From a virus, in IMG/VR virus record IMGVR_UViG_3300027770_000039, positions 32,001 to 96,000 of that record: DNA of 64,000 nucleotides, one strand, 5' to 3'. Under the pieces are notes generated by a model. That model did not search any database, had not been told where the DNA came from, and worked only from the letters and a program-made list of their open reading frames with translations. This document shows, in pieces, positions 18,952-32,866 of this stretch. Each line of letters opens with the position of its first letter. Position 1 is the stretch's first letter. The translations under genes and the position numbers were made by a program.

Positions 18952-20652
18952 TTAAATATTTTGTACCACTATCCAGTCAGAATTGAAATAATCAACCGAC
19001 AGCTCTGACATTTTACCTAGCTGATCTTCAATAATTGTACCTTGGGAAGATACATATTTATTAAAATGATCCTGAACTTTTTCGGCACTCAGGGCTGATT
19101 CATAAGTAGCCAAATTCTGATATAGGCTTTGCCCTCCCAAAACGCTAGATTTATTAATAGAAATTTCTCCATATATGCTATTTTCAAAAACAATAACAAC
19201 GTGGTAAAGAGAATCTTTTAAAAACAAATTATTTATATTAGTCTGGCTTGTCTTATCTACCCCATTAACGTATATCTTGGATATATTGCTTTTAGATATT
19301 GTATTGCTTGACCAAGTAAGGCTACTTGCGCTGTACCCGCTTGTAGCAACAGATGTAACCAACCCTCCATTTTGAATAGAATACGGTGTATAAAAAAACT
19401 CTATCGATTTTGTTGGGGTTGTCGTATTTATATAAAACGATGAAAGATTTTTTAAGCTGATGCCGTTTCTGTTATCTGTAGAAAGTATTTCATATTTGTT
19501 ATTGCTTACAGGGATGTCTTGCTGGCTGGCTATATAATTAGAGGAATTTTTTGAATAAATTTTTTGATTATTGTAAAAGCTTATGGATAAAAATTTTAAG
19601 GATGGAAGGTATACGCTATCGTCTGATGTTGTAAAATAAACCCTAATATATAAATTTCTTGTTTGACTAAAAGAGCTTAATGAATACTGGGGTACGGGTT
19701 GGCCATTAACGCAAGATTGATAGTTTTGTCCATCTATACTTACCGAAACAGATATTCCATTATCCCCGTCCCATTCAATTCTTGAAGAGTTCATTTCTGG
19801 TCCGCTTGGGATTGTAATAAAATCCTCAATAACAATAGACTGTGAATCTCCGTTTCCCTTTACAACACCGATAAATTCTTTTTGAGAGTTATAGTATAAA
19901 TTATTATCGTTAATAAAATACTGCCATGATTTATTGGCTGGATAGGAATAAGAATACTTTGTTGAAATTGATTTATCTGTAAGTTCAAAAAAATTACCTT
20001 GGTCTGGGTAAACTATTTGAGTAGGGCTTAAAGATTTATTTTCTAAATAATGAGATAAAACCTGATCTTTAGTCAAAGAATTTCTATAAAAAGATACACA
20101 ATTTAAGAGCATATAGTCTAAACTATTATTAACTGGTCCTGACTTCATTGTAATAGATTGATTTGAAAAAGAAAACCCAGACAGATCTTTTTCTGCTTCT
20201 ATCTTTCCATCTATATACAGTATAATTTTATTCTTATTGTATACTGCAACTATATATATAGATTTTTTTAAGAAAGGAACAGTGTACTCTATATGCTTTG
20301 TACCTATTGAAAATACTATATTACCTTTTTTATAAAATAGTCCTATATCATTAGAAGAGTCTCCTACAATTGGTATTTCTAAAGAAGAGGTAGTATTTAC
20401 CCTAACCCAGCATTCTATAGAAAATTGATCATCGGAAAAATTTTTAGTCGCAATTCCATCTATATCTATGTAGGTAATGGCGGCAGTTCCAGAAAGTTTT
20501 GAAGAGTTTTCTGCACCAATAACTAGTGGTAAATTTGTGTTATCTACCGATCCGAATATTGATACCTGATTGTCAAATCCAGAAATATCATCTGTTCCGC
20601 TTGGCCAAAAAGCCAGCGGGTTGTCTGATAAAACTCTAAGATTATACGACAT
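18952..20652 (-). CDS. Concanavalin A/LamG-domain virion protein
   Basis: VLSDNPLAFW, FSIECWV and LYIDG LamG motifs; leaderless start after TGGTACAAT. Confidence 0.75.
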   Translation of the reverse strand: MSYNLRVLSDNPLAFWPSGTDDISGFDNQVSIFGSVDNTNLPLVIGAENSSKLSGTAAITYIDIDGIATKNFSDDQFSIECWVRVNTTSSLEIPIVGDSSNDIGLFYKKGNIVFSIGTKHIEYTVPFLKKSIYIVAVYNKNKIILYIDGKIEAEKDLSGFSFSNQSITMKSGPVNNSLDYMLLNCVSFYRNSLTKDQVLSHYLENKSLSPTQIVYPDQGNFFELTDKSISTKYSYSYPANKSWQYFINDNNLYYNSQKEFIGVVKGNGDSQSIVIEDFITIPSGPEMNSSRIEWDGDNGISVSVSIDGQNYQSCVNGQPVPQYSLSSFSQTRNLYIRVYFTTSDDSVYLPSLKFLSISFYNNQKIYSKNSSNYIASQQDIPVSNNKYEILSTDNRNGISLKNLSSFYINTTTPTKSIEFFYTPYSIQNGGLVTSVATSGYSASSLTWSSNTISKSNISKIYVNGVDKTSQTNINNLFLKDSLYHVVIVFENSIYGEISINKSSVLGGQSLYQNLATYESALSAEKVQDHFNKYVSSQGTIIEDQLGKMSELSVDYFNSDWIVVQNI

Positions 20653-20677: not shown

Positions 20678-21367
20678 TTAATATCCGCCCACGTGAAAGA
20701 CCTGGCCCGACAAGCTGGAAGACTTTTCGTCAAAAAGTAACTCTACTAGATTTGCTATATCGGTTACAGTATACTCTTTCGGAACAACTTGACCTAGTAA
20801 TAAAGTTTGAAAATAAATTTCTGGCATAAATTTTGTAAATCTAGTTCTTATTGGTCCTGGGGCTATACAGTTTGGCCTAATTTTAGTACCGCATACTTGT
20901 TTAGCTAAAGACCTTGTGTATGTTTCTAAAGCTGCTTTTGATGCTGAATACATAGACTCTGAATTTATTTGATGCGCCGCTAAGCTTGATATGTTAACTA
21001 TTGGAGTATGTTTCTCTGGGTCTACAAGAGCAAGAAATTTAGATATAACATTATAGGGACCTAAAACGTTGACATTCATCATTTGCTCAACTTGTGGAAA
21101 AATTTCTCCATAAGCGGGTGATGGCCAGTAAGCACCAGCACAGTTTACAATTCCAGAAATAACAATATTTCTTTCTTTAATTGATTTAAATAAACTTTCT
21201 AGTTTTTCCTGATCAACAATATCTGTTTGTATGTACTCAAAGGTATCGCTATTATCAGAGTTTCTGACGTGCCTTCCAACTCCAATAACTTCGTGCCCTA
21301 AAGAGACTAGCCTTTTGGCAACTTCATTTCCAATTCCTCTGACTGCTCCTACTACTAAAACCGTCAT
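20678..21367 (-). CDS. Short-chain dehydrogenase/reductase
   Basis: GAVRGIG Rossmann motif, VNCAG, catalytic YSASK, NCIAPG. Confidence 0.92.
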   Translation of the reverse strand: MTVLVVGAVRGIGNEVAKRLVSLGHEVIGVGRHVRNSDNSDTFEYIQTDIVDQEKLESLFKSIKERNIVISGIVNCAGAYWPSPAYGEIFPQVEQMMNVNVLGPYNVISKFLALVDPEKHTPIVNISSLAAHQINSESMYSASKAALETYTRSLAKQVCGTKIRPNCIAPGPIRTRFTKFMPEIYFQTLLLGQVVPKEYTVTDIANLVELLFDEKSSSLSGQVFHVGGY

Positions 21368-22017
21368 TCTGTGCCATCCGAATAGTATGGCTTAGATCTA
21401 TTGTGATACCAATTTGGAAGAGCGTATCTAATTCCAGAAGTTATTGCCGATACTTCGTGGACGTATATGTAATTAGAAGGGAAGAACAATAAACTTCCTG
21501 CTTCTGGTTTTAAACTTACACCTGCATGTTCAAATTTAATATTTCCTCCTTCGTAATCATCGTTTAAATAAAGAAGTGCTGATAAAACTCTGCTGCTAAT
21601 TCCGTGGTCAGAATGTGCTGGCAAAAAGCCAGATTCCTTATACTTTAAAAGATGCATTGTTTTTTCTCTTGATTTAATATTTTTTTGAGAGTATGGATAA
21701 ATAGAAAAATAGTCTTGCAATCCTTTTTCTAATGCCCCAAATAAAACATCTGATATTTCTTTTTGTTCTTGATAAAATAGATCATCTTTTGAAATATCTT
21801 CAGATTTTGGGATAAACTTTTGCCAACAAAAAACAGTTTTTTCTTTTCCGCCGTGATCGTAATCCCAGGGTTGCCAGCCTCTTACATAAAGAGAATTGTA
21901 TCCAACAGACTCACTTCTTTTTATTTCTAAATCTTCAATTTTTTTAATTAGAGACTTAGGGTCTGGTATTATATTTTTATAATAAGCCATTCCTAGGGAA
22001 AGAATTTCTCTATTCAT
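21364..22017 (-). CDS. 2OG-Fe(II) oxygenase (prolyl-4-hydroxylase-like)
   Basis: HSD...LYLNDDYEGG...HEV...GIRY: facial triad plus the 2OG-binding Arg. Confidence 0.9.
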   Translation of the reverse strand: MNREILSLGMAYYKNIIPDPKSLIKKIEDLEIKRSESVGYNSLYVRGWQPWDYDHGGKEKTVFCWQKFIPKSEDISKDDLFYQEQKEISDVLFGALEKGLQDYFSIYPYSQKNIKSREKTMHLLKYKESGFLPAHSDHGISSRVLSALLYLNDDYEGGNIKFEHAGVSLKPEAGSLLFFPSNYIYVHEVSAITSGIRYALPNWYHNRSKPYYSDGTE

Positions 22018-22565
22018 TAAAATACTCCAAAATCTGGGTCGGCAAAGTCCATCTTTGTGGATTGCATGTAAAGCGCAGTAAATCTATTTCCTTTAGTTAT
22101 TTCTTTTACTCCGTGCAGATAATCATATTTATTTCCTGGGAAAAAAATAGCTGATAGGGATTTTGGTCTGTGCTCAAAATTTTGTTTAGGAAAATAGATT
22201 TCTCCACCTTCATAATCATCGTTTAAGTAAATTACAGTGCTGTATTCTATAAATGGTTCTTTTTCAATTGCATCAATATGAGGACTTCCACTTTGCCCTG
22301 GTTGCCACCATGATCCAAAAGCCTTGGTAACAATTACATTATCTTTTAAATTAAAAAATTCTTTTTGTATATGGTTTGCTCTTACTGAATATTTTTTAAG
22401 AATATCCATTACTCTATTATTGTATGGAAAAGCAGTTCCACCATTTCTATCTTTATAATACTCTGGGTACGGGTTTCTTTTTGAAGGAGATTGCATCTCT
22501 TCTATCAGGGCAAATGCATCTTGTTCTGATATAAAATCTTCTACAATTTTTATCATGCTGTTCAA
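22017..22565 (-). CDS. 2OG-Fe(II) oxygenase (prolyl-4-hydroxylase-like)
   Basis: HID...IYLNDDYEGG...HGV...GNRF. Confidence 0.9.
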   Translation of the reverse strand: MNSMIKIVEDFISEQDAFALIEEMQSPSKRNPYPEYYKDRNGGTAFPYNNRVMDILKKYSVRANHIQKEFFNLKDNVIVTKAFGSWWQPGQSGSPHIDAIEKEPFIEYSTVIYLNDDYEGGEIYFPKQNFEHRPKSLSAIFFPGNKYDYLHGVKEITKGNRFTALYMQSTKMDFADPDFGVF

Positions 22566-23383
22566 TTTATTACTCCTTTAAAGTTTAAATATCTTTCTCC
22601 GCCAACTTTGTCTGTTAATGAACCAGAAGGATCATACAAAACATCGTTTGTTGAAAATGGTAGACTTGATATTTCTAATCCAAACACCTGTTTAATGCTG
22701 GAACTCCATTTACTCACAAACTCATTATACCCGTGATATATAGAAAAAGGCAAATATTCGACCTTATCTAACTCAATTGTTTTATTTTTAAAAAAAGTTG
22801 TAGGAAGGGCAAAGATTTTTGTAAAATTAAAATATATAGCTAAATGTTCTCTTTCTCCATGATATTTTAAATAACCTGGCAATTTGTTATATAAAAAAGA
22901 CTTAGATTTTGTAAAAATAAAATCTTTATCTATATATTTTGTCAATGTGTCTTCAGAGATAGGCTCTTTTTTATATGAAACAATAAATGGGTTTTCTAAA
23001 TATGGTATAAGTCTGTGATTTCCAGAAATTATACAATCTTCATTGAGGCTGAGTAGTTCTATTTTTTGAACTAGATCTTCGTCCCAATTTTTATTTAGGC
23101 TTACCCCATCTCCAATTAGCAAAAAGTATTCTTTTTTGAAAAGTCTATACCCTTCTTGTTTATGCAAAATTGGGCTTTTAATGCTATCCCATTTTACATA
23201 TTTGTAATAAATTTTTACATTTGAATAGTTAGACTTTAAACTTTTTTTTCTATCAATATTGTTTTGATCAATTATATAAAAAAATAAATTGTTTAATCCA
23301 CTGGAATTTTCTATATTTTTTTCAACTAATTCTATTAAATCTTTATTTTGAAAAGAATACAAAACTATGCCAATATCTTTCAT
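22562..23383 (-). CDS. GT-A glycosyltransferase resembling the Skp1-hydroxyproline GlcNAc-transferase family (divergent)
   Basis: IGIVLYS...IIDQ...EYFLLI...NWDEDLV...FIFT...YHGE pattern; the canonical DSH motif is replaced by GDG. Confidence 0.55.
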   Translation of the reverse strand: MKDIGIVLYSFQNKDLIELVEKNIENSSGLNNLFFYIIDQNNIDRKKSLKSNYSNVKIYYKYVKWDSIKSPILHKQEGYRLFKKEYFLLIGDGVSLNKNWDEDLVQKIELLSLNEDCIISGNHRLIPYLENPFIVSYKKEPISEDTLTKYIDKDFIFTKSKSFLYNKLPGYLKYHGEREHLAIYFNFTKIFALPTTFFKNKTIELDKVEYLPFSIYHGYNEFVSKWSSSIKQVFGLEISSLPFSTNDVLYDPSGSLTDKVGGERYLNFKGVIN

Positions 23384-24060
23384 TCAAACAGATCCGTAAA
23401 AATACTATCTTCATTCATTGGTCCCTTTGGAACTAATATAATATCATAGGCAATTGTCATTCTTGGCTCATCCCCGTACCAGTCGTCTCTGCCATGTGGG
23501 TTGCCAGTTTCTGATAAAATAGCTCTATTGTTTTTATTAATATTTTCAAAAATATCTTTATTGTTGATTTTATAATAAGTAATCGAAGGTTCTGCTTTTA
23601 CGCAGTAGAATCCATGTAGCTGTGGAAATCCTGAACCGTCCATATGGTCGTGGAAAAACGAACTGTCTTTTCTTGGGTCTACCGAATGGACGTTGTTAAT
23701 TATTTTTTTATCTAAATTAAACCAACCATGGGTAATAAATTTTGACGAATTGTCGTTATAGCCATAGTACTCGCAAGCTTCTCTTGTCATGTCAGCAATA
23801 GCTTCTTTTAACTTTTTTATTTCTGGGTTGTCAAATTCCCAAATATTATACCTGTCACTATTTTTTGTAGCAATAGCATCCAGAATTCCTGGGTCTTGAG
23901 CTAGGGCTTTATTTAAGCCTTCTCCCATTTCTTTCCTTGCCTGTTCAACTAATTCATTATTTTTTTCTAACAAAAAACTATAAAGATTTTCTAAATTATT
24001 ATCTAAAGTTCTTTCAAAAAATTTATGATCTTTTTTTTCTTTCATAGAAGTGGTATCCAA
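23380..24060 (-). CDS. Putative 2OG-Fe(II)/DSBH oxygenase, paralog of 24042..24692
   Basis: GWFN...FHDH...HGFYCVKAEPS...PHG...RMTIAYD. Confidence 0.7.
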   Translation of the reverse strand: MDTTSMKEKKDHKFFERTLDNNLENLYSFLLEKNNELVEQARKEMGEGLNKALAQDPGILDAIATKNSDRYNIWEFDNPEIKKLKEAIADMTREACEYYGYNDNSSKFITHGWFNLDKKIINNVHSVDPRKDSSFFHDHMDGSGFPQLHGFYCVKAEPSITYYKINNKDIFENINKNNRAILSETGNPHGRDDWYGDEPRMTIAYDIILVPKGPMNEDSIFTDLFE

Positions 24061-24692
24061 TGCTGAGGACTTGCTTTTGCCTCAATGATAGAATTTAATG
24101 GCATAATATCATAAGCAATTGTAATTCTTGGTCCTTCCCAGTCCCAACTTCCCATAGCATGAGGGTGACCCATTTCTGAAACAATCATTCTGTTATCTAT
24201 ATTGTGATTTTCAGTTTCTTTTTCAAAAACTTTGTAATAAGTAATTGATGGTTCTGCTTTTACGCAATAAAATCCGTGAAAATAAGGAGCATAAGGACCT
24301 CCATGATCGTGCCAATCTAGTTTTCCAACTTCTGCATAATTTATGTTAAACCATCCTTGCACCATGTATTGCTGTTTATCAAAATCAATATCATAATAAG
24401 AACAAGCTTCTTTTATTACATCAGAAAGCTCTTTATACAGTTTGTAAATTCCTGGATGATAAAATTGAAAAACATTGTAGTCTCTCCATTTTATAGTAGA
24501 AACACTACCAGACTCTTTCCAATAGTCTGACTTGCCCACTTCTGTAATACCTTTAATGCTTAAATTTTCAATTTTAGAATATTGATCTTGTAAAAATAAA
24601 GACAAATCTTGTAAATCATTATCTAAAATCCTTTCAAAAAACTTGTGAGGTTTTCCGCTAGGTTTATTTTTTCCAGATAGGAAGTATTCCAT
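24042..24692 (-). CDS. Putative 2OG-Fe(II)/DSBH oxygenase
   Basis: GWFN...WHDH...HGFYCVKAEPS...HPHA...RITIAYD. Confidence 0.7.
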   Translation of the reverse strand: MEYFLSGKNKPSGKPHKFFERILDNDLQDLSLFLQDQYSKIENLSIKGITEVGKSDYWKESGSVSTIKWRDYNVFQFYHPGIYKLYKELSDVIKEACSYYDIDFDKQQYMVQGWFNINYAEVGKLDWHDHGGPYAPYFHGFYCVKAEPSITYYKVFEKETENHNIDNRMIVSEMGHPHAMGSWDWEGPRITIAYDIMPLNSIIEAKASPQHWIPLL

Positions 24693-25445
24693 TTATTTCT
24701 CTTTTCTTGTGTAGTTTTTTCTTTTCCATATAAAATCTTTATAATATGAATATATTGATATTCTTCTTTTTTCTTCTTTGATTTTTTTTACCACTATGTC
24801 TTCTTTGGAGTAATCCAATGACATTTCCCAGTTTTCTCTTTTAAATGGAAAAACTTGAAATATAGGCGTTCCTTTTTTAATAGTTCCCATAAAATTTCTT
24901 TTTAGAAAAAATGCTGTAAATACTGGTGCGTTCCATTCATCGGAGTCTATAACTCCAGAAAGAGTGGTAAATGGAAGATCATGTCTATTGTGTGGGTGTG
25001 TAATTAAAATAGAATACCCTGGTGGAGTTTCGCAATGCCAAGGAATTTTCCAGCCATAATGCATTGGATGGTGTTCATGTGGAACTGCAACTTCTATCAT
25101 GTTTCTTTTATCTACTAGCATAAAATTATTTGTATTTTTAATAGAAGGAAACCCATTTTTATCTAAACTTACCTCAATATCATCTTCTAGGCAAAACATA
25201 TAACCTGCTGTTAAGGAATCAAAAAATGGCATACATAATTTAGTAGAGCCAGCGCTACCGTCTGTTCCTCTATCATTTACTGGAAACAACCTTAGCAAAT
25301 CATTTGAGGTTTGAAATCTGGAAAGCTTTTTATACCACTCTGGCAAATTATTTATGGCAGGAGAGGGTGCGTCATAGTCTTTTGGTTCAAAATTAAGATT
25401 AACCTCTGCTGGGGTGAATTTAATTATTAAATTATTATCACTCAT
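24693..25445 (-). CDS. DUF6065-like protein
   Basis: PEWYKK...KLCMPFFDSLTAGY...TPPGYS...GVIDSD...GTPIFQVFPFKRENW. Confidence 0.6.
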   Translation of the reverse strand: MSDNNLIIKFTPAEVNLNFEPKDYDAPSPAINNLPEWYKKLSRFQTSNDLLRLFPVNDRGTDGSAGSTKLCMPFFDSLTAGYMFCLEDDIEVSLDKNGFPSIKNTNNFMLVDKRNMIEVAVPHEHHPMHYGWKIPWHCETPPGYSILITHPHNRHDLPFTTLSGVIDSDEWNAPVFTAFFLKRNFMGTIKKGTPIFQVFPFKRENWEMSLDYSKEDIVVKKIKEEKRRISIYSYYKDFIWKRKNYTRKEK

Positions 25446-26145
25446 TAATAATTTTTTTAATAACCTTTTCTGTAGCTTTTATAGAAATATAAAATAGTGG
25501 AGTATTTCTCTCTATTAACCTTATTTGTTTTTCATTAGATAAAAAACAAAAATCTATAAAAGTTGGTTCCTTTATTATATCATTATTATTAGTTTTTTCA
25601 AAGGTCCCACTAGTCTCAATAATGCATATTACTGGGTCTTTTTTAATATTTTTTATACTATACTCTGCATCGCAATCAACAATCCATGGTACATATATCT
25701 TAAAAATTCTGTCCGAAACTTGTTTAAAATTATTTTTATTTAACAAGTCTTTAAAGCTTTCAATAGACAAAAATGATGGATAAAACTGCCTAACCATAGA
25801 TTTTTCAGATGCATAAAATATACTAGAAACCTGTTTATTGCTTGTTGGATGTCCTTGCCAAAGAATATCTGAATAATTCTTGTATATTAGATTTATCTCA
25901 TTTTTAGAAACTATCTCTATTTCTGGTTTGATTCCAAAATTATCTACATATAAATTTATTGGTTTTAAAACATTATTTTTATATTTTTTTAAAACTTGAT
26001 CCCAGGTTGCCCAATCATAAAAAACGTTGCATTCTTTTAAAATATCTTTAAAACTCATTGAAGACATCTCTAGCCAAGAATTAGATTCAAATGGTGCCCT
26101 TAATATGGGAAACGTTTTATTTATCGAAATATCTTTTTTGACCAC
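25438..26145 (-). CDS. Hypothetical protein, possibly a degenerate DUF6065-like member
   Basis: FKIYVPW and IERNTPLFYI echo the neighbouring paralogs; translationally coupled to them. Confidence 0.45.
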   Translation of the reverse strand: MVKKDISINKTFPILRAPFESNSWLEMSSMSFKDILKECNVFYDWATWDQVLKKYKNNVLKPINLYVDNFGIKPEIEIVSKNEINLIYKNYSDILWQGHPTSNKQVSSIFYASEKSMVRQFYPSFLSIESFKDLLNKNNFKQVSDRIFKIYVPWIVDCDAEYSIKNIKKDPVICIIETSGTFEKTNNNDIIKEPTFIDFCFLSNEKQIRLIERNTPLFYISIKATEKVIKKIINE

Positions 26146-26852
26146 ATTTTTTTCCTATAACCATTTCTAAAAACTGATCTAACCGAAAGTTGCTGGGCTC
26201 TAATTTGTGTATCAGAATCTTTTTCTTTATTAAGCGAGCTTTCCCAATCATCTCTCTTAAAAGGAATAATTTGAATAATTGGAGTGCCTTGTTCAATTAC
26301 TCCTTTAAATCCTTTTTCTACAAAAAAAGACAAATAACCATCAGAAGCGTATTTATCTGTGTCTATCAACCCTGGGATAGCTTGTAGAGGGCTTTTTTCT
26401 CCGTGCATTGGGTTTATAAACAAACAACTATACCCTGGCTCTGTTCTGGCAACCCACATTGGATGTATTCTTATAACTTGCTTATGAAAATTATTAGGAA
26501 TAGGGTATTCTTTTATTTGTTCAGATAAATGATGAGCTAATAAAAATTTTTGAAACTCTCTTGTATCATTTGGAATATCAATTTTTAAAATATCTCCTGT
26601 AGCATCTATGCTTAAATCCATAGGGCAAAGTAAGTAATATCCAAAAGTCATAGAATCAAAAACAGCTTGACATTTTTTTACTGTTAAAAGCATATTTCCG
26701 CTATGAACAGATGTATCATCATTTAAATAGCTTTTTTGTTTTTTCCACCACTCTGGAAGCAATGAAGATACCGATTGAGGATTTGGGAATATTTTTTCAA
26801 GTCCTCTATACTTTGGAAGAAATTCAATCTTTATCAAACTAATGGAATCCAT
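26121..26852 (-). CDS. DUF6065-like protein, paralog of 24693..25445
   Basis: PEWWKK...TVKKC...MTFGY...TEPGYS...GLIDTD...GTPIIQIIPFKRDDW. Confidence 0.6.
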   Translation of the reverse strand: MDSISLIKIEFLPKYRGLEKIFPNPQSVSSLLPEWWKKQKSYLNDDTSVHSGNMLLTVKKCQAVFDSMTFGYYLLCPMDLSIDATGDILKIDIPNDTREFQKFLLAHHLSEQIKEYPIPNNFHKQVIRIHPMWVARTEPGYSCLFINPMHGEKSPLQAIPGLIDTDKYASDGYLSFFVEKGFKGVIEQGTPIIQIIPFKRDDWESSLNKEKDSDTQIRAQQLSVRSVFRNGYRKKMWSKKIFR

Positions 26853-27394
26853 TTCTGATAGTATTGTCTGTGCAAATTTTGTAATGTAGATACAGAAAAA
26901 TATAAAAACATACTATCTTTATTTATTGTATCACAAAAATCTATTATATCTCCTTTATCAAATAGAATTAAGGTACCTTCTGGCGTATCTATTTCTTTTT
27001 CATTAATTATCATTTTATTGTTATTGCTTTTAATTACATATATCCCAGAAAAATTTAACCTTGTTCTATCTGGAGTTGTCACCAAAAAATTGTTGACAGA
27101 TTGATCTAGTAAATTTCCTAATAAATAGTAATAATTATTTTCAAAGTTTATTTTGTTTTTTTTGCACTCTTCTTTAATAATTTTAGATATTTCTAAATAT
27201 AATTTGTATATTTCTTTATGGTACATTCCAAAAAAATTAAAAGTTTTATAATCAATTAAAGAAATTTTTTTTGTTTTAATTTTTGTTCTGACTCCCCATT
27301 TTGCAGAACCTACTTCTTCATACATTGAGTCAATCATATCTTTATATTGTTTATATAAGAATTCGTTTCTAATGTTTTCTAGTTTTGTTATCAT
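26834..27394 (-). CDS. Degenerate paralog of the 24042..24692 oxygenase, lacking metal ligands
   Basis: Shares FNFF.MYHK.IYKLY.E.S.IIKE.C and the C-terminal KWIPL with 24042..24692, but has no HxH or distal His. Confidence 0.55.
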   Translation of the reverse strand: MITKLENIRNEFLYKQYKDMIDSMYEEVGSAKWGVRTKIKTKKISLIDYKTFNFFGMYHKEIYKLYLEISKIIKEECKKNKINFENNYYYLLGNLLDQSVNNFLVTTPDRTRLNFSGIYVIKSNNNKMIINEKEIDTPEGTLILFDKGDIIDFCDTINKDSMFLYFSVSTLQNLHRQYYQKWIPLV

Positions 27395-27399
27395 AATTT

Positions 27400-28041
27400 T
27401 TATTTCTCTAAAATTTCATTTGGGTTTTTTTCGTAAGGTCTGAGAGAATGCCAAGTTGCTGGTAAAATAGGATCTTTAAAGTGCTCTAAGTCTGGCTCTG
27501 TAATAATTTCTTTTGATTCTCCCAAAATTATATTTTCATTTTTTTTATTTTTTGATCTTTTAAACCTTAAAGCTAATATTAATTTAGCTGATTGTTTATG
27601 CATAGCAGATCCAGTTTTGCTTGCAGAAACACCTTGTCTAACTCTAACATTATACTTTGCCCACCAAACAGTATATCCCAATATGGCCAATGAAATATTT
27701 ATTTTTTTTCTTCTATAATAAGGCTGGCAGTAAACTCTATTTATCACAGCATCTTTACATTTTTTTATATTATCATTTTGTATGTTTGAAATGTCTATCC
27801 ATGAAGTAGGATATTCGTTATTTATAAAATTAGAAAATATTAATGTTCCAGAAGGATTTTTATCATTAAGGTAAAGGCATTCTATGCCTTTGTTTCCATT
27901 TACGTCTTGCATTAAAGTCCATTGAATCCAAGAACCTTTTATATACTTAGGGTATTTTCTAAATATTGGAAAAATAAAACCTTTTGTTGATTTTGCACCA
28001 ACAAATCCCATATTGTAAATATGCTTAACTAAATTAAGCAT
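27400..28041 (-). CDS. GNAT-like acyltransferase (weak)
   Basis: INRVYCQPYYRRKKI resembles GNAT motif A. Start re-called at 28041, just after the Hint gene stop. Confidence 0.45.
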   Translation of the reverse strand: MLNLVKHIYNMGFVGAKSTKGFIFPIFRKYPKYIKGSWIQWTLMQDVNGNKGIECLYLNDKNPSGTLIFSNFINNEYPTSWIDISNIQNDNIKKCKDAVINRVYCQPYYRRKKINISLAILGYTVWWAKYNVRVRQGVSASKTGSAMHKQSAKLILALRFKRSKNKKNENIILGESKEIITEPDLEHFKDPILPATWHSLRPYEKNPNEILEK

Positions 28042-28046
28042 GCTTA

Positions 28047-29363
28047 TTAGGCAGGGGTTGTAGGGTCGGTGTCTCCTGCTGTAGAGTCTTTCCATTGCTG
28101 GTAAAGTACCTCTAGAGATTCAGAAACGCTTTGGTTTGGCTCAGTAATAACGTTAGGTGATGTTATGTCTAGTCTAACTGAGTCGTGGACTAAAGAGTTG
28201 TCTGTAAAGAATACGTCATAAGGCTCTGTGTTAATAGTAATAACTAACTCTGGTCCCTCTGAAACTCTTAGCTCAATAATTGGCTGCCAATCATTGAATG
28301 TTGGAGAGTAGATTAAATCTGTTTCTACAATTTCATTAGCTGAAATAAATCTTGCTATTCCATCTCTTTTGGTTAGAACCCAGTGTGTATTTGTATATTT
28401 ATTTCCGTTAATTACATAAGTGGTCATTGCAATGTTTGCTGAAATAGACACCACTGTTGTTTCAATATCAGTATTAATTTGTGGGGCAGCAGATGACCAA
28501 GATTCAATAATTTCTTCTAGTCCTACTCCGTCCATTGGCAAATCATCAATTGCTGCTGAGTACAGAATATCTCCTGCAGAAACGTTGTGAGCTAACACAA
28601 GACCTTCAGGAACCTTTGAATGAATTAATGTATCTGCTCCAATTGATTTTCCTGGTGTAAAGCCGAACGGGGTGAAGCCGAACGGGGTGAAGCCGAACGG
28701 GGTGAAGCCGAACGGGGTAAAGCCGAACGGTGCAAAGCTGAATGGGGTTGTAGTAATATTTCCTGAATAATTAGACCATGCTCCATTTCCATTAGCATTT
28801 CTAGCCCGCACTCTAAAGTTCCAAACAAAGTCATTGTTTTGGCTTGCAAAATCTACGCTGTTTGTTCCAACTGCTACGGTCTTATTGTCGTCTCCGCCTC
28901 CACCATTATCTTCTAAATAATAATCAATAATTGCTGATCCACCGTCTGCTGGTGTTGACCAGGAAGCTCTATTGTTTTGTGCTCCATTGTTTGCTGCTGA
29001 CGGAGTTGAAATTGTATCAGGCACTGTTGTTGCAGTAATGCTATTAGACGCAGCAGATGCTGGCGAGTTTCCAACTGCATTTGTTGCTATAACTGTAAAT
29101 GTGTATGCTGTATTTGATTGTAGACCAGTTACAGACAGGGGAGATGATGCTCCTGACGCAGTGTATGATCCTGGAGAGGATGTTACTGTGTATGATGTGG
29201 CTGCAGGTGAGTCTTCTGGTAAAGAAAACGTTACATCAGCACGTCCATTATTGAATGCACGACCTGAACCTACATCTGTTGCGGCTACTGACGTTGGTGC
29301 TTTTGGCTCCAAAAAGTCATTTGATGCCTGTGCCTTTTTACCGAATTTCTTACCTGCTGCCAT
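28047..29363 (-). CDS. Fibronectin type III x2 + (FGFTP)5 repeat + Hint (intein-like) domain protein
   Basis: FN3 motifs (VTGLQSNTAYTFTVIATNAVG; WNFRVRARNANG). Hint blocks: SIGADTLI (A), TNTH (B), INTEPYDVFFTDNSLVHDS (F/G). Confidence 0.85.
   Translation of the reverse strand: MAAGKKFGKKAQASNDFLEPKAPTSVAATDVGSGRAFNNGRADVTFSLPEDSPAATSYTVTSSPGSYTASGASSPLSVTGLQSNTAYTFTVIATNAVGNSPASAASNSITATTVPDTISTPSAANNGAQNNRASWSTPADGGSAIIDYYLEDNGGGGDDNKTVAVGTNSVDFASQNNDFVWNFRVRARNANGNGAWSNYSGNITTTPFSFAPFGFTPFGFTPFGFTPFGFTPFGFTPGKSIGADTLIHSKVPEGLVLAHNVSAGDILYSAAIDDLPMDGVGLEEIIESWSSAAPQINTDIETTVVSISANIAMTTYVINGNKYTNTHWVLTKRDGIARFISANEIVETDLIYSPTFNDWQPIIELRVSEGPELVITINTEPYDVFFTDNSLVHDSVRLDITSPNVITEPNQSVSESLEVLYQQWKDSTAGDTDPTTPA
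28654..28748 (-). repeat. In-frame 15-bp tandem repeat encoding FSFAP(FGFTP)5
   Basis: Units of GGGGTGAAGCCGAAC with only synonymous variation among the FGFTP copies. Confidence 0.95.
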
Positions 29364-29395: not shown

Positions 29396-31099
29396 TTACG
29401 CCATCAAGTCGCCGTAGACAACCCATGTATTTGCTGCTCTCTTAAAGAGAGTTGCAGATGACCAGGTTGTACGAAGTTTCAAACCAGGTGTTGCGTTAAC
29501 AGTTACTCCACCAGCACCTGCAATTGTAACCTGACCAGTTGATGTCTGAAGGATATCAATAGAGGTTCCGACTGGGAAGTTTAGTGTTGCATCTGTTGGA
29601 ATTGTAAGTGTTAGTGCTGAAGATGATCCCATTTCAATTAAGTCATCTCTTTCAGTTAATGCTGAAAGTGTATAAGATGCTGTCTTCTGAATGATTGGTG
29701 TCCGTGATGGTACACCTTCCATTGTTTGTGTTCCGTCTGTAAATGCTACACCTGAAGCAGAGGCTGTAATTAATCCTGTTGCTGTAATTGCTGGTGCTGT
29801 TACTGTACCAGTAAATGTTGGTGAAGCAATTGGTGACTTTGTAGCAATTGAGTTTGTAATTGTTGTTGAGAATGATGCGTCATTTCCAAGAGCAGTTGCT
29901 AACTCATTAAGAGTATCAAGTACTGCAGGTGCTGATGCTACAAGGTTTGAAACTGCTGTTCCTACGAATGCTGTAGTTGCAACCTGTGTAGTTGATGTTC
30001 CTGCTGTTGCAGTTGGGGCAGTTGGTACACCAGTAAGTGCTGGTGAAGCAAGTGGTGCCTTTAGATCAAGTGCTGTCTGCGCTGCAGTTGAAACTGGCTT
30101 TGCTGTGTCTGCAGTATTATCAACATTTCCAAGACCAACCATTGACTTTGTAATACCAGAAACTGTTCCAGTGAAAGTTGGTGAGGCAAGGTCAGCCTTA
30201 AGTGCCAATCCTGAGTTAACAGTTGCAGTTAATGCTAATGCTGATGTGTCTGAAATACCGTGTACGCTTGTTGTATCTGCGGTGTGGGTATCTAAATTTG
30301 TTGCTGCTGTGGTAGCGGCAGCTGTAATTGCTGCTGCTCTAGCAGTTGCTTCTGCTGTAATTGCTGCGCCTCTAGCAGTTGCTTCTGCTGCGACTGCACC
30401 AGTAACATAAGTTTGATTTGCTAATACTGATGTGTCTGCAATTCCGTGTACAGATGTAGTATCATTGTTGTGAGCAGTAATTTCAGTATTGACATAGTTC
30501 ATTGTTGCCAATGCTGTCATGTCTGCTACTCCGTGAACGTTTGTGCTAACCTGACCGTGTGTTGCAATTCCTGCGACTGTCTGTGTTTGAATATCGTCTA
30601 CATATTTCTTAGTTGATGCATCATAATCTAATGTAGGTGTTGCAAGACCTGTGATTTTGCTATTACCCATTGCAATAGCGCCAGTCATTGTTCCGCCAGA
30701 TTTTGGTAATCTAGTATTTATGCTAGTATTCATTGTAGTTACAAAATTTGCGTCATCATTGATGGCTGCTGCTAACTCGTTAAGAGTATCTAGTACTCCA
30801 GGAGCTGCGTCAATTACATTTCCTAATTGATTAATCGGCACCTGTCCTTGTGCATCTAGTGATGCTACTCCGTTGGCAACGCCTCTATCGGCTACCTCAA
30901 GATAGTCTCCAAGTGTATTTGTTAAATCTGAAGGAACAACGTTTGCATAAGCTAGGGATGTCCAAGCAGTAGAACCTGTTCCAATTTTAGTTTTTCTAGT
31001 ATCTGACTCTACGCCCATTTCTCCTGCGGCTAGAGTTGGATTTGCTGAAGTCCATTGTGCTGCGGTACCTCTGCGAATTTGAATTCTTACTGTTGACAT
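29396..31099 (-). CDS. Tail fibre protein (Mtd-N/hyaluronidase-N-like N-terminus)
   Basis: IQIRRGTAAQWTSANPTLAAGEMGVESDT at the N-terminus; LDTLNELA and APLASPALTG fibre motifs; ends NTWVVYGDL. Confidence 0.8.
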   Translation of the reverse strand: MSTVRIQIRRGTAAQWTSANPTLAAGEMGVESDTRKTKIGTGSTAWTSLAYANVVPSDLTNTLGDYLEVADRGVANGVASLDAQGQVPINQLGNVIDAAPGVLDTLNELAAAINDDANFVTTMNTSINTRLPKSGGTMTGAIAMGNSKITGLATPTLDYDASTKKYVDDIQTQTVAGIATHGQVSTNVHGVADMTALATMNYVNTEITAHNNDTTSVHGIADTSVLANQTYVTGAVAAEATARGAAITAEATARAAAITAAATTAATNLDTHTADTTSVHGISDTSALALTATVNSGLALKADLASPTFTGTVSGITKSMVGLGNVDNTADTAKPVSTAAQTALDLKAPLASPALTGVPTAPTATAGTSTTQVATTAFVGTAVSNLVASAPAVLDTLNELATALGNDASFSTTITNSIATKSPIASPTFTGTVTAPAITATGLITASASGVAFTDGTQTMEGVPSRTPIIQKTASYTLSALTERDDLIEMGSSSALTLTIPTDATLNFPVGTSIDILQTSTGQVTIAGAGGVTVNATPGLKLRTTWSSATLFKRAANTWVVYGDLMA

Positions 31100-31579: not shown

Positions 31580-32866
31580 TTATTTAATCAATGTTCCAAC
31601 TACAACAACTTCAGTGTTATTGTTTGCTGGGGTTACACGAATTCTTACATCTGAGCCAGAATAATCTGCAGTTACTGCAGCTAACTCTGTTCCGTTTGAA
31701 TATGTAATTCCATATTCAGAAACTGCTACGTTGTTAGAAGTATCAAGTGTAACTACTAGGTCTGATACCTGAGTGTGGCTACCATTTTTTGCTTTAACTA
31801 CAAGCTTAGCGCTTCTGTAATCTGCTGCTGCCCATGAGATAGCAGTTGTTGCTGCAGCGGTTACAATATTTCCAGTTGTTGCTGCAACTTGCTTGGCAAC
31901 AGAGTTGTAATTAATTGATGTAAATGCTGTAGTTCCGTTTTGCTGTGCTGTATTAGCTGCTGCTGCAGTTGCTTCTGCTGCTGCTTGAGCTGCGTTAGCT
32001 TTAGTTGTAGCATCTGAGGCTGCTGCAGACTGTGCTGCGTTAGCTTTAGTTGTAGCATCTGAGGCTGCTGCTGATGTTGCTGCAGTTTGTGCTGCATCTG
32101 CTGCTGCCTTTGCATATGCAGTTGTTGCAACCTGAGTTGTATTTGTTCCTGCTGCTGCGGTTGGTGCAGTTGGTGTTCCAGTCAATGCTGGTGATGCTAG
32201 AGGAGCTTTTGTTCCTAGAGCTGTTGTAATAGTTGTTGTATAGTTAGCGTCATCATTAATTGCTGCTGCAAGTTCATTTAATGTATTAAGAAGGTCTGGT
32301 GCGCCGTCTACTAATGTACTTACTGCTGATGAAATTGCTGTATTACGGTTTGAAACCTCTGTGCTAATTGCAGATGAAAGAGCGGATGCTGCTGTTGCTT
32401 CTGCTGCTGCTTGAGCTGCGTTGGCCTTTGAAGTAGCGTCTGCTGCTGCAGTTGCTACTGATGCTGCGTCACCTGATACTCTAAGTGCTGCTTCTGCTGC
32501 TACCTTAGTGGTTGCGTCTGATGCTGCAGTTGTTACTGATGCTGCGTCACCTGATACTCTAAGTGCTGCTTCTGCTGCTACCTTAGTGGTTGCGTCTGAT
32601 GCTGCTGCAGAAATTGCTGCTGATTGAGCAGATGAAGCTGATCCATAAGCATCAAATACGCTAGCCTTTACTGTAAGATTTCCTGCACCATCAACTGCAA
32701 ATGTTCCTGCGTCTACGGATTTTACAAGAGTGGCTCCTCCAACAAGGTTAAGGATGTAGGCATTTCCGCCTGTTTCTGTAAGTATATTTTGGCCATTGAT
32801 TGTACCTGTTGCGCCTTCAACTACAAGACCTGATTTGATTCTAAAGTTTTTTACTACTGTTGCCAT
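31580..32866 (-). CDS. Ala-rich tail fibre / virion structural protein
   Basis: DATTKANAAQ coiled repeats; LNTLNELAAAINDD motif; YRSAK-type C-terminal domain. Confidence 0.75.
   Translation of the reverse strand: MATVVKNFRIKSGLVVEGATGTINGQNILTETGGNAYILNLVGGATLVKSVDAGTFAVDGAGNLTVKASVFDAYGSASSAQSAAISAAASDATTKVAAEAALRVSGDAASVTTAASDATTKVAAEAALRVSGDAASVATAAADATSKANAAQAAAEATAASALSSAISTEVSNRNTAISSAVSTLVDGAPDLLNTLNELAAAINDDANYTTTITTALGTKAPLASPALTGTPTAPTAAAGTNTTQVATTAYAKAAADAAQTAATSAAASDATTKANAAQSAAASDATTKANAAQAAAEATAAAANTAQQNGTTAFTSINYNSVAKQVAATTGNIVTAAATTAISWAAADYRSAKLVVKAKNGSHTQVSDLVVTLDTSNNVAVSEYGITYSNGTELAAVTADYSGSDVRIRVTPANNNTEVVVVGTLIK
32456..32605 (-). repeat. 78-bp-period tandem duplication (26 aa) in the fibre gene
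   Basis: 32456-32527 is identical to 32534-32605. A second, 45-bp-period duplication lies near 31991/32036. Confidence 0.9.

Follow-up and report, generated by a model that had tools for sequence, protein, structure and literature searches.

Eleven genes packed behind a repeat-bearing fiber gene may form a protein hydroxylation and O-glycosylation island in a freshwater actinophage. The genes (g01 to g11) fill positions 20678–28041 of a 64,000-nucleotide stretch of viral DNA (positions 32,001 to 96,000 of IMG/VR record IMGVR_UViG_3300027770_000039; this whole stretch is the window below), where they are co-directional minus-strand open reading frames (ORFs) directly after a gene for a protein with two FN3 domains, a (PFGFT)5 repeat, and a Hint domain (FN3x2-(PFGFT)5-Hint). 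Among them are two oxygenases of the prolyl 4-hydroxylase (P4H) type and a glycosyltransferase (GT) of a polypeptide-glycosylating lineage. We consider it likely that the cassette acts on a protein substrate of some kind. Our leading explanation, held tentatively, is that the island is expressed with the fiber genes and targets the adjacent PFGFT segment. In gene order, the block and its flanks are:

29396..31099, minus strand: Mtd_N-domain fiber protein, 567 amino acids (aa), upstream flank (Mtd_N 3.5e-15)
28047..29363, minus strand: FN3x2-(PFGFT)5-Hint protein, 438 aa (fn3 4e-12)
27400..28041, minus strand: g01, 213 aa, weakly GNAT-like (Acetyltransf_1 in 2/7 homologs, E 0.007)
26834..27394, minus strand: g02, 186 aa, degenerate g06/g07 paralog (blastp to g06 6e-10)
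26121..26852, minus strand: g03, 243 aa, DUF6065/phrog_7084 family (phrog_7084 1e-43)
25438..26145, minus strand: g04, 235 aa, probable divergent DUF6065-like paralog (hhalign E 4.4e-4)
24693..25445, minus strand: g05, 250 aa, DUF6065/phrog_7084 family, g03 paralog (phrog_7084 1.7e-32)
24042..24692, minus strand: g06, 216 aa, double-stranded beta-helix (DSBH) protein with the 2-oxoglutarate (2OG) oxygenase fold (AlphaFold2 (AF2) model, structure matches, invariant residues)
23380..24060, minus strand: g07, 226 aa, g06 paralog with the same His/Arg site (blastp 1e-44)
22562..23383, minus strand: g08, 273 aa, GT-A glycosyltransferase, divergent GT60/PF11397 relative (AF2 model, profiles)
22017..22565, minus strand: g09, 182 aa, P4H-type 2OG-Fe(II) oxygenase (phrog_61 1e-16)
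21364..22017, minus strand: g10, 217 aa, P4H-type 2OG-Fe(II) oxygenase (PF13640 2e-14)
20678..21367, minus strand: g11, 229 aa, classical FabG-like short-chain dehydrogenase/reductase (SDR) (adh_short 7e-36)
18952..20652, minus strand: LamG-like protein, 566 aa, downstream flank (Laminin_G_3 8e-9)

Two genes near the end of the block encode the P4H-type oxygenases that a preliminary description made from the sequence alone had proposed, and both have intact active-site residues. The g10 product matches PF13640 well above threshold (2e-14, 54.8 bits, cut-off 27), and its phmmer matches among PDB sequences (E 1e-4 to 2.5e-3) include Tet-like dioxygenases at the top, prolyl 3-hydroxylase 1, the Bacillus anthracis P4H, and a PKHD hydroxylase. 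Its neighbor g09 has no Pfam match and was placed via phrog_61 (2OG-Fe(II) oxygenase, 1e-16); it aligns with g10 (blastp 4e-12) at 47% identity across the catalytic core. Read from alignment and translations, the HxD...H...R site is H135-S-D ... H187 ... R in g10 and H-I-D ... H ... R in g09. H135 and H187 are invariant in the family alignment, and the Asp and Arg are present in both proteins. Both are P4H-type 2OG oxygenases, and activity on peptidyl proline is predicted.

The adjacent gene g08 encodes a glycosyltransferase of the GT27/GT60 lineage. It has no Pfam match at E ≤ 1, and an AF2 model built from 18 homologs (predicted local distance difference test (pLDDT) 88) has a GT-A fold. This model superposes on the GalNAc-T2 catalytic domain (VIA Z 18.5, root-mean-square deviation 3.0 over 227 residues); the top 20 rows of its structure matches are all GT27 polypeptide N-acetylgalactosamine (GalNAc)-transferases, with GT2-type enzymes next at Z 15–16.5, and GT60 chains are absent among the structure matches listed. 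The g08 alignment also found nothing significant in a profile search of PDB sequences. PF11397 (Gnt1/GT60) matches 7 of the 18 g08-family members, all below threshold (E ≥ 1e-3). A g08-family profile run against 1.84 billion proteins gathered 381 relatives, the distant ones being bona fide PF11397 proteins (127–922 bits) that the g08 hidden Markov model (HMM) reaches at 1e-10 to 1e-21. With one such relative, P0306, the g08 family aligns at 97.3% hhalign probability (E 1.6e-11), so that the invariant D92 falls on the D of DSH and the conserved YGEEE on HGEE; the invariant H217 could be the distal metal ligand. Because g08 stays below the PF11397 threshold, lacks the DxH His, and reaches the family through a transitive profile link, we place it as a sister or divergent branch and not as a curated GT60 member. 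The resemblance to the hydroxyproline N-acetylglucosamine (GlcNAc)-transferase family noted in the preliminary description thus stands at the level of lineage and falls short of close membership. As far as is known, all characterized GT27/GT60 enzymes in CAZy glycosylate polypeptides, and for g08 transfer to hydroxyproline or Thr is predicted.

Glycosyltransferase and oxygenase are consistently found together. A P4H-like gene lies no more than three ORFs after g08 in 48/50 distinct cases, in both of the contexts described below as class A and class D, and four distant g08 relatives (P0273, P0281, P0285, and P0305; 1,344–2,461 aa) fuse several PF11397 and PF13640 domains within one protein. The proposed pairing of a P4H with a GT of the hydroxyproline/Thr-GlcNAc-transferase lineage is therefore real and conserved. 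The fusions suggest a common substrate for both activities, like Skp1 for PhyA and Gnt1, and independently support a functional link between the two families in general. In domain composition, P0273, P0281, P0285, P0297, and P0305 carry 4–8 PF11397 stretches joined to P4H-type oxygenase domains, some of them together with AhpC/TSA, protein O-fucosyltransferase, or PLOD-GT domains.

Cassette-family genes are also tied by position to FN3-repeat-Hint genes across related phages. A g06-seeded survey yielded 80 IMG/VR loci at 59–95% identity, out of 381 matching stretches, which we annotated with iterated HMMs of every cassette gene. A second survey was seeded by the repeat, using a degenerate DNA pattern for PFGF[ST]PFGF, since an 18-sequence Hint alignment proved too diverse as a seed for the locus search; this recovered 65 distinct repeat ORFs, of which 50 could be followed into downstream DNA. 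Where FN3-type repeat-Hint genes have downstream DNA, cassette-family genes follow within two ORFs in 38/39 cases and immediately in 35, the lone exception being a large 1018-aa variant. The enzyme set behind the repeat-Hint gene varies from 1 to about 12 genes. Co-occurrence of the enzyme set with repeat-Hint genes, as the preliminary description had anticipated, thus holds for position, but a sub-block of the enzymes also occurs away from the repeat-Hint gene, which comes partway to the outcome that the description had named as refuting. By gene order, loci fall into four classes:

class A (window-like): FN3-Hint, g01, g02, g03, g04, g05, g06, (g07), g08, P4H, P4H, SDR, LamG
class B: FN3-Hint, g04, g03, g05, g06, g07, g08, g07, ribonucleotide reductase (RNR), P4H
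class C: FN3-Hint, g06, g07, RNR, P4H
class D: g04, g05, g06, g08, P4H, (x), P4H, with no FN3-Hint gene in the locus

The RNR sits between g06/g07-type genes and a P4H-like gene (L073:11460–13496) and appears as an ORF of ~676 aa in L088 and most class B/C loci. Seven class D loci, those with sufficient upstream sequence, encode 2–4.5 kb upstream of the block a PA14 protein whose long repeat is rich in Pro/Thr/Glu (21–28 Pro in every 60 residues, with a match to the Pfam PT repeat in the L069 copy); the other classes have no such ORF. As a result, the GT/P4H block neighbors a Pro/Thr-repeat protein in both of its contexts. The PA14 proteins (L064:4186–6150, L069:1923–4028, and five other class D loci) also have coiled coils and a C-terminal membrane anchor, and between their genes and the block lie genes for holin-like small membrane proteins, a proteasome-like Ntn hydrolase, and a secreted S8 protease. 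A whole-cassette blastn search (distant mode) against 50,697 phage records gave no match.

The repeat-Hint gene, which is the final gene of the fiber block, carries the repeat PFSFAPFGFTPFGFTPFGFTPFGFTPFGFT at 28656–28745, the sole repeat of its kind in the window. (PFGFT)5 is also the only repeat there that bears both Pro and Thr, and a search for collagen or other Pro-rich repeats in the 64-kb window found none beyond it; the flanking fiber proteins have a Ser+Thr content of 21–25%. Repeat units in homologs are PFGFT, PFGFS, or PFGVFGFS. A predicted complex of g10 with residues 195–245 of the repeat protein scored 0.01 in a run without controls, which speaks neither for nor against binding. 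Some relatives encode FN3-repeat proteins that lack Hint and end right after the repeats (L057:7980–9203, L060:8879–9928, L093:8735–9943, L109, L144, L154, and L175), one of them terminating in a Cys-rich tail, TGCTPCCCGYYGCVQDGCHI. The Hint domain therefore appears dispensable in part of the clade, because these Hint-less proteins still precede oxygenase-fold genes. A second repeat-Hint family combines an N-terminal PASTA domain, PFGFT/PFGAFGFT repeats, and a Cys1...HN Hint domain (L141:9325–10212, minus strand; also L151, L156, L158, L163, and L114). After this PASTA-repeat-Hint gene, class C genomes have an ORF of ~205 aa, which resembles a stand-alone Hint-like domain lacking the first Cys, and next a P4H-like gene.

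Every gene between 14.5 and 33 kb of the window lies on the minus strand. Junctions within the block range from -25 to +5 nt, the stop of the repeat-Hint gene lies 5 nt ahead of g01, and aligned homologs back the g01 start at 28041; coordinates and junctions agree with the earlier account of about 11 tightly coupled genes right behind the Hint-repeat gene. Downstream, the LamG-like gene, which shares synteny with the cassette across class A, is followed by a 114-aa ORF and by portal (8e-32), prohead protease, and capsid genes. Between 20 and 31 kb we found no terminator-like sites on the minus strand, and promoter-like sites were no more frequent than in shuffled sequence. RNA-library contigs from four lake metatranscriptomes, representing ~92–96% identical relatives, run across the repeat gene/g01 junction (27684–28695), with a 3–4-nt insertion at 28046/28047, and give a weak hint of co-transcription. 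Contig depth in the metatranscriptomes is lower over the cassette than over the fiber genes, a measure that cannot rank genes and to which DNA contaminating the RNA libraries may contribute. The source genome is a complete 110,973-bp phage with direct terminal repeats. Because it encodes WhiB (104746–104919, genome coordinates), because the window's portal protein is 58% identical to portals of large Streptomyces siphophages, and because freshwater (lake) metagenomes contain DNA near-identical to the window, several of them having at least half of its sampled words, the label of freshwater actinophage, already applied in the preliminary description, is reasonable.

Besides the P4H pair, the cassette encodes a second family with an oxygenase fold. 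Its representative g06 is the most conserved gene of the cassette, with 935 homologs and no Pfam domain, and its AF2 model (pLDDT 78) is a DSBH. The closest structures are the uncharacterized bacterial proteins 3bvc/2rg4 (VIA Z about 14.6), followed at Z 11–12 by PHD1/2, SnoN/K, ThoJ, and EctD; the structural neighbors also include the Pseudomonas putida P4H, solved in complex with EF-Tu, and those in BFVD are cyanophage hypothetical proteins and 2OG oxygenases. A profile search of PDB sequences with the g06 alignment returned nothing significant. g07 is a close paralog (blastp 1e-44, 39% identity) that retains the aligned motifs, and the residues invariant in g06/g07 are H128-D129-H130 ... 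H178 ... R189. This differs from the canonical HxD/E...H triad in having His in place of Asp/Glu two residues after the first His, and may represent a 3-His site, of tentative geometry because both loops have low pLDDT. g02 aligns to the N-terminal half of g06 (blastp 6e-10) with substitutions at the WHDH, HPH, and RxT positions (alignment by eye and translation), and we regard it as a dead copy because all of the g06/g07 His/Arg site residues are gone. The three HxH-type DSBH paralogs recognized earlier, one of them degenerate, are thus borne out, by fold and site for g06/g07 and by loss of the site for g02. Outside the IMG/VR loci, a tblastn search of the phage records with g06 found no match, and a scan of genome contigs for g06 found four loci in lake metagenome-assembled genomes labeled Flavobacterium, Bacteroidia, Crocinitomicaceae, and Synechococcus, which are probably binned viral contigs and from which we draw no host inference. 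We set aside a 591-aa protein on a 2.3-kb contig in which g06 is joined to a coiled-coil region as probably a chimera or frameshift and uninformative.

Among the remaining genes, g03 and g05 match phrog_7084 (1e-43 and 2e-32) and each other (blastp 9e-28), and score 26.2 and 21.2 bits against DUF6065 (PF19541; cut-off 26.6), a family without known function on which a literature search found nothing relevant. Their alignment shows no His triad and retrieved nothing significant in a profile search of PDB sequences, and hhalign comparisons of g03/g05 with g06, of g03/g05 with P4H, and of g06 with P4H found no link between the three families. Homologs of g03 stand alone in haloarchaeal HF2-like viruses, where a DUF6065 homolog adjoins RNR (L014). 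g04 is probably a divergent, degenerate third copy: it aligns with the g03/g05 profile at hhalign E 4.4e-4 and 34% probability over 165 colinear columns that share a GTP motif, and has Atlas feature scores of 0.93–0.94 to viral clusters, one of them partly DUF6065. Of the three DUF6065-like paralogs described earlier, two therefore stand through phrog_7084 and the third is a weaker assignment.

No Pfam, PHROG, or NCBIfam entry matches g01, and its Atlas score of 0.91 goes with few shared features. Its motif DRxYTSPxYRRK aligns with YRRMGIGSSLG of the L044 copy, the window reading YRRKKIN where that copy reads YRRMGIG, and Acetyltransf_1 is matched by 2/7 homologs (E 0.007) and not by the window copy, so that the GNAT-like label survives only in a weak form. 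Acylation, which the preliminary description included among the modifications, has no support beyond this call. g01 occurs only in full class A cassettes and always with g02; g11 is likewise found only in full cassettes. The SDR assignment of g11 is secure (adh_short 7e-36), its translation containing all the classical motifs (GAVRGIG for GxxxGxG, NCAG, NISS, and YSASK), and its best PDB matches are FabG 3-oxoacyl-ACP reductases (1e-20).

Built on the observed gene order, coupling, folds, family links, and conserved linkage, our model predicts both the catalytic steps and the substrate. The island would be late-expressed as part of the fiber module. g09 and g10 would hydroxylate proline, and g08 would then add a sugar to the new hydroxyproline or to Thr/Ser. 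Further modifications could come from g06 and g07 and perhaps from the DUF6065-like g03 and g05, while g02 and g04 would be catalytically dead paralogs, perhaps serving as binding or scaffold subunits. g11 and the weakly GNAT-like g01 may tailor the sugar or its donor. The likeliest target would be the (PFGFT)5 segment of the upstream FN3-Hint protein, because no other repeat in the window contains both Pro and Thr. Of the pathway modifying the adjacent repeat put forward in the preliminary description, the enzyme types and the linkage largely stand, and the repeat is the leading candidate target.

Several findings weigh against this model. Because a single phage clade supplied every locus, the counts are not independent and the adjacency may reflect inherited synteny. 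Class D, with at least 16 loci, has the sub-block g04-g05-g06-g08-P4H-P4H at a second site distant from the FN3-Hint gene, in the company of a CHAP lysin gene near holin-like genes and of carbamoyltransferase and SGNH-like genes, the latter two suiting sugar or small-molecule chemistry. In a 90%-complete class D genome (G002), the FN3-repeat-Hint gene lies ~58 kb from the enzyme block and is followed only by a DUF6065-like gene, RNR, and head genes; the GT/P4H block persists there although this FN3x3-repeat-Hint variant (L221:11820–13373, minus strand) has an (AFG)n repeat (FAPFGAFGAFGAFG...) that is Pro-poor and has almost no Ser/Thr. Many class B/C relatives have a class II (B12-dependent) RNR inside the block. 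The P4H family is evidently common in accessory regions, as the present genome has three further PF13640 P4H-like genes outside the cassette (G000:C1 2885–3169, 12866–13111, and 105918–106178; L225, L224, and L226), one adjoining a carbamoyltransferase fragment and another, near the WhiB gene, an SGNH-like gene. Within the cassette, it is hard to see what a FabG-like SDR would do on a peptide, the small-molecule oxygenases SnoN/K, ThoJ, and EctD score the same Z against g06 as prolyl hydroxylases do, and the position of the GT27/GT60 DxH His is G, D, N, or Q in the g08 family. Finally, GC content is 0.42 in the two upstream fiber-module genes and 0.23–0.36 in the cassette (lowest in g02, 0.226), with a sharp step from the repeat gene to g01 (28041–28049).

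Part of this evidence would also suit hydroxylation and glycosylation of proteins other than the PFGFT repeat, such as the Mtd_N fiber, the LamG-like protein, the collagen-like fibers of relatives, or a host protein, a possibility we rate as fairly unlikely. Neither the GT60/P4H link nor the fusions identify the protein substrate that they point to. Collagen-like proteins are natural P4H substrates, and L020-type relatives place a collagen-repeat/S74 fiber directly after the SDR; the class D block lies near the PA14/PT-repeat protein instead, and in G002 the enzymes persist while the FN3-Hint repeat has almost no Ser/Thr. Bacterial P4H acts on EF-Tu, and the P. putida enzyme of the EF-Tu complex is among the g06 structural neighbors. 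The flanking fiber proteins are themselves candidates by their Ser+Thr content. Against these alternatives, the window offers no other collagen or Pro-rich repeat, across classes the enzyme genes are found immediately on the 3′ side of the FN3-repeat-Hint gene as other neighbors change, and the PASTA-repeat-Hint paralog also has a P4H-like gene two ORFs downstream.

Another possibility, which we judge unlikely, is that the block is an accessory island of moron or auxiliary-metabolic-gene type at a fiber/head recombination hot spot, with non-protein substrates (envelope glycans, sugar nucleotides, metabolites, or 2OG), so that adjacency to the repeat gene would be purely positional. The RNR within the block, the class D neighbors (carbamoyltransferase, SGNH-like genes, and the CHAP lysin near holin-like genes), the extra P4H-like paralogs beside carbamoyltransferase and SGNH-like genes in this genome, the lower GC of the cassette relative to structural genes, and the small-molecule character of the FabG-like SDR all fit such an island, as do the DUF6065 homolog alone beside RNR in haloarchaeal viruses and the cyanophage hypotheticals related to g06. 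However, the best solved matches of g08 are polypeptide GalNAc-transferases, in a lineage whose characterized members glycosylate polypeptides, and its distant relatives are fused to P4H domains. Furthermore, the genes are translationally coupled to the structural operon, and two different Pro-bearing repeat proteins adjoin the block in its two contexts. Roles in DNA repair or 2OG balance, of the sort proposed for cyanophage 2OG oxygenases (PMC3037559), would belong with the accessory-island interpretation. Hypermodification of phage DNA, by TET/JBP-like base hydroxylation followed by glycosylation, is very improbable. It would accord with the weak matches of g10 to Tet_JBP (E 0.004) and a Naegleria Tet-like dioxygenase (E 1e-4) and with PHROG names of related families that include "DNA endonuclease", but g10 matches the P4H-type PF13640 far better (2e-14), the GT is of the polypeptide-modifying GT27/GT60 lineage, family searches found no DNA methyltransferase, kinase, or base-modifying partner in the block, and the block lies in the structural and not the replication module.

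The layout also invites comparison with clusters for ribosomally synthesized and post-translationally modified peptides (RiPPs), in which a repeat-bearing "precursor" gene is likewise followed by hydroxylase, glycosyltransferase, and tailoring-type genes. Here, in contrast, the putative precursor is a 438-aa FN3 fiber-module protein and not a short leader-core peptide, and searches of the 11 products with Pfam, PHROGs, and NCBIfam found no leader, recognition element, dedicated protease such as a leader peptidase, or exporter; the RiPP-like route to a released peptide suggested in the preliminary description is accordingly unsupported. A broader version, which we think rather unlikely, is that a large clade of abundant freshwater actinophages carries a modular RiPP-like pathway in which a Skp1-type P4H and a GT60-like GT work with two more oxygenase-fold families, dead paralogs bind the substrate, the Phe/Pro/Thr "FG-like" fiber repeat is hydroxylated and glycosylated, and Hint then cleaves or transfers the segment.

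Among known systems, the Skp1 pathway of Dictyostelium and Toxoplasma (the P4H PhyA with Gnt1, GT60/PF11397) is one of the two nearest in likely working and resembles the cassette in pairing a PF13640-type oxygenase with a GT60-lineage GT; here the pair is conserved as neighbors and fused in distant relatives, with a g08 GT-A fold nearest to polypeptide GalNAc-transferases. The cassette differs in being phage-encoded, in having no Skp1-like target and no later-acting GTs (PgtA, AgtA, and Gat1), in a g08 that is below the PF11397 threshold with a family that lacks the DxH His, and in its many added oxygenase-fold paralogs, SDR, and Hint-repeat neighbor. Giant viruses, the other nearest parallel, also supply their own 2OG hydroxylase and GT for repeat-bearing structural proteins, Mimivirus L230 being a collagen lysyl hydroxylase/glucosyltransferase and the PBCV-1 prolyl 4-hydroxylase acting on Pro-rich repeats. 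Those viruses have eukaryotic hosts, collagen-like or PAPK-type repeats, and another GT family, whereas our cassette belongs to a tailed actinophage with a PFGFT repeat in a Hint-ended gene. Mycobacteriophage GTs reportedly O-glycosylate virion proteins (Freeman et al. 2023, Cell Host Microbe 31:1216, cited in PMC12801897), so that these too are actinophage GTs that decorate their own virion. Unlike g08, such GTs are not known to be GT60-like or to be paired with prolyl hydroxylases or other oxygenases, and their targets are reportedly capsid and tail-tube C-termini. Prolyl hydroxylation with hydroxyproline/Thr glycosylation has so far been known from eukaryotic Skp1, trypanosome mucins, and giant-virus fibers. 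T4-like cyanophages carry multi-copy genes for 2OG-Fe(II) oxygenases, phytanoyl-CoA dioxygenase-like proteins, and carbamoyltransferases (Sullivan et al. 2010, PMC3037559), and the substrates of such oxygenase paralogs in aquatic phages, especially cyanophages, have been without assignment since they were first catalogued (PMC3037559). As in those phages, there are several oxygenase-fold paralogs in one aquatic phage genome and carbamoyltransferase neighbors, in class D and in this genome; unlike the dispersed cyanophage genes, those of the cassette form a coupled block anchored to a repeat-protein gene and including a polypeptide-type GT.

The chemistry is familiar, but we did not find a description of its carrier (a tailed phage), of its partner genes (two more oxygenase-fold families that include dead paralogs), or of its anchoring to a Hint-terminated Phe/Pro repeat, and a literature search on GT60 in phages found nothing relevant. 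The cassette places three oxygenase-type families beside a polypeptide-lineage GT and links their location to a defined repeat protein. If our explanation is right, prolyl hydroxylation with hydroxyproline/Thr glycosylation extends to tailed phages of bacteria and would be a second kind of actinophage virion glycosylation, with possible effects on adsorption, host range, and virion stability in lakes. The modular tailoring pathway, if true, would represent a new class of post-translational modification of virions and would give the 2OG oxygenases of aquatic phages their first concrete substrate class.

Relatives carry additional genes of protein-modifying type at the same site, in favor of our explanation. 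These include genes for an Asp/Asn beta-hydroxylase-like protein (2e-12), a TP_methylase (PF00590, 2e-21), and a sulfotransferase-like protein. The TP_methylase (236–238 aa) is encoded between g08 and g09 in the closest relatives (L015:12131–12838, L022:5789–6502, and about 11500–12200 in L001/L002/L006) and is not present in the window. In L020-type class A loci, a collagen-repeat fiber gene with an S74 intramolecular chaperone (L020:14034–15092) follows the SDR gene and takes the place of the LamG-like gene.

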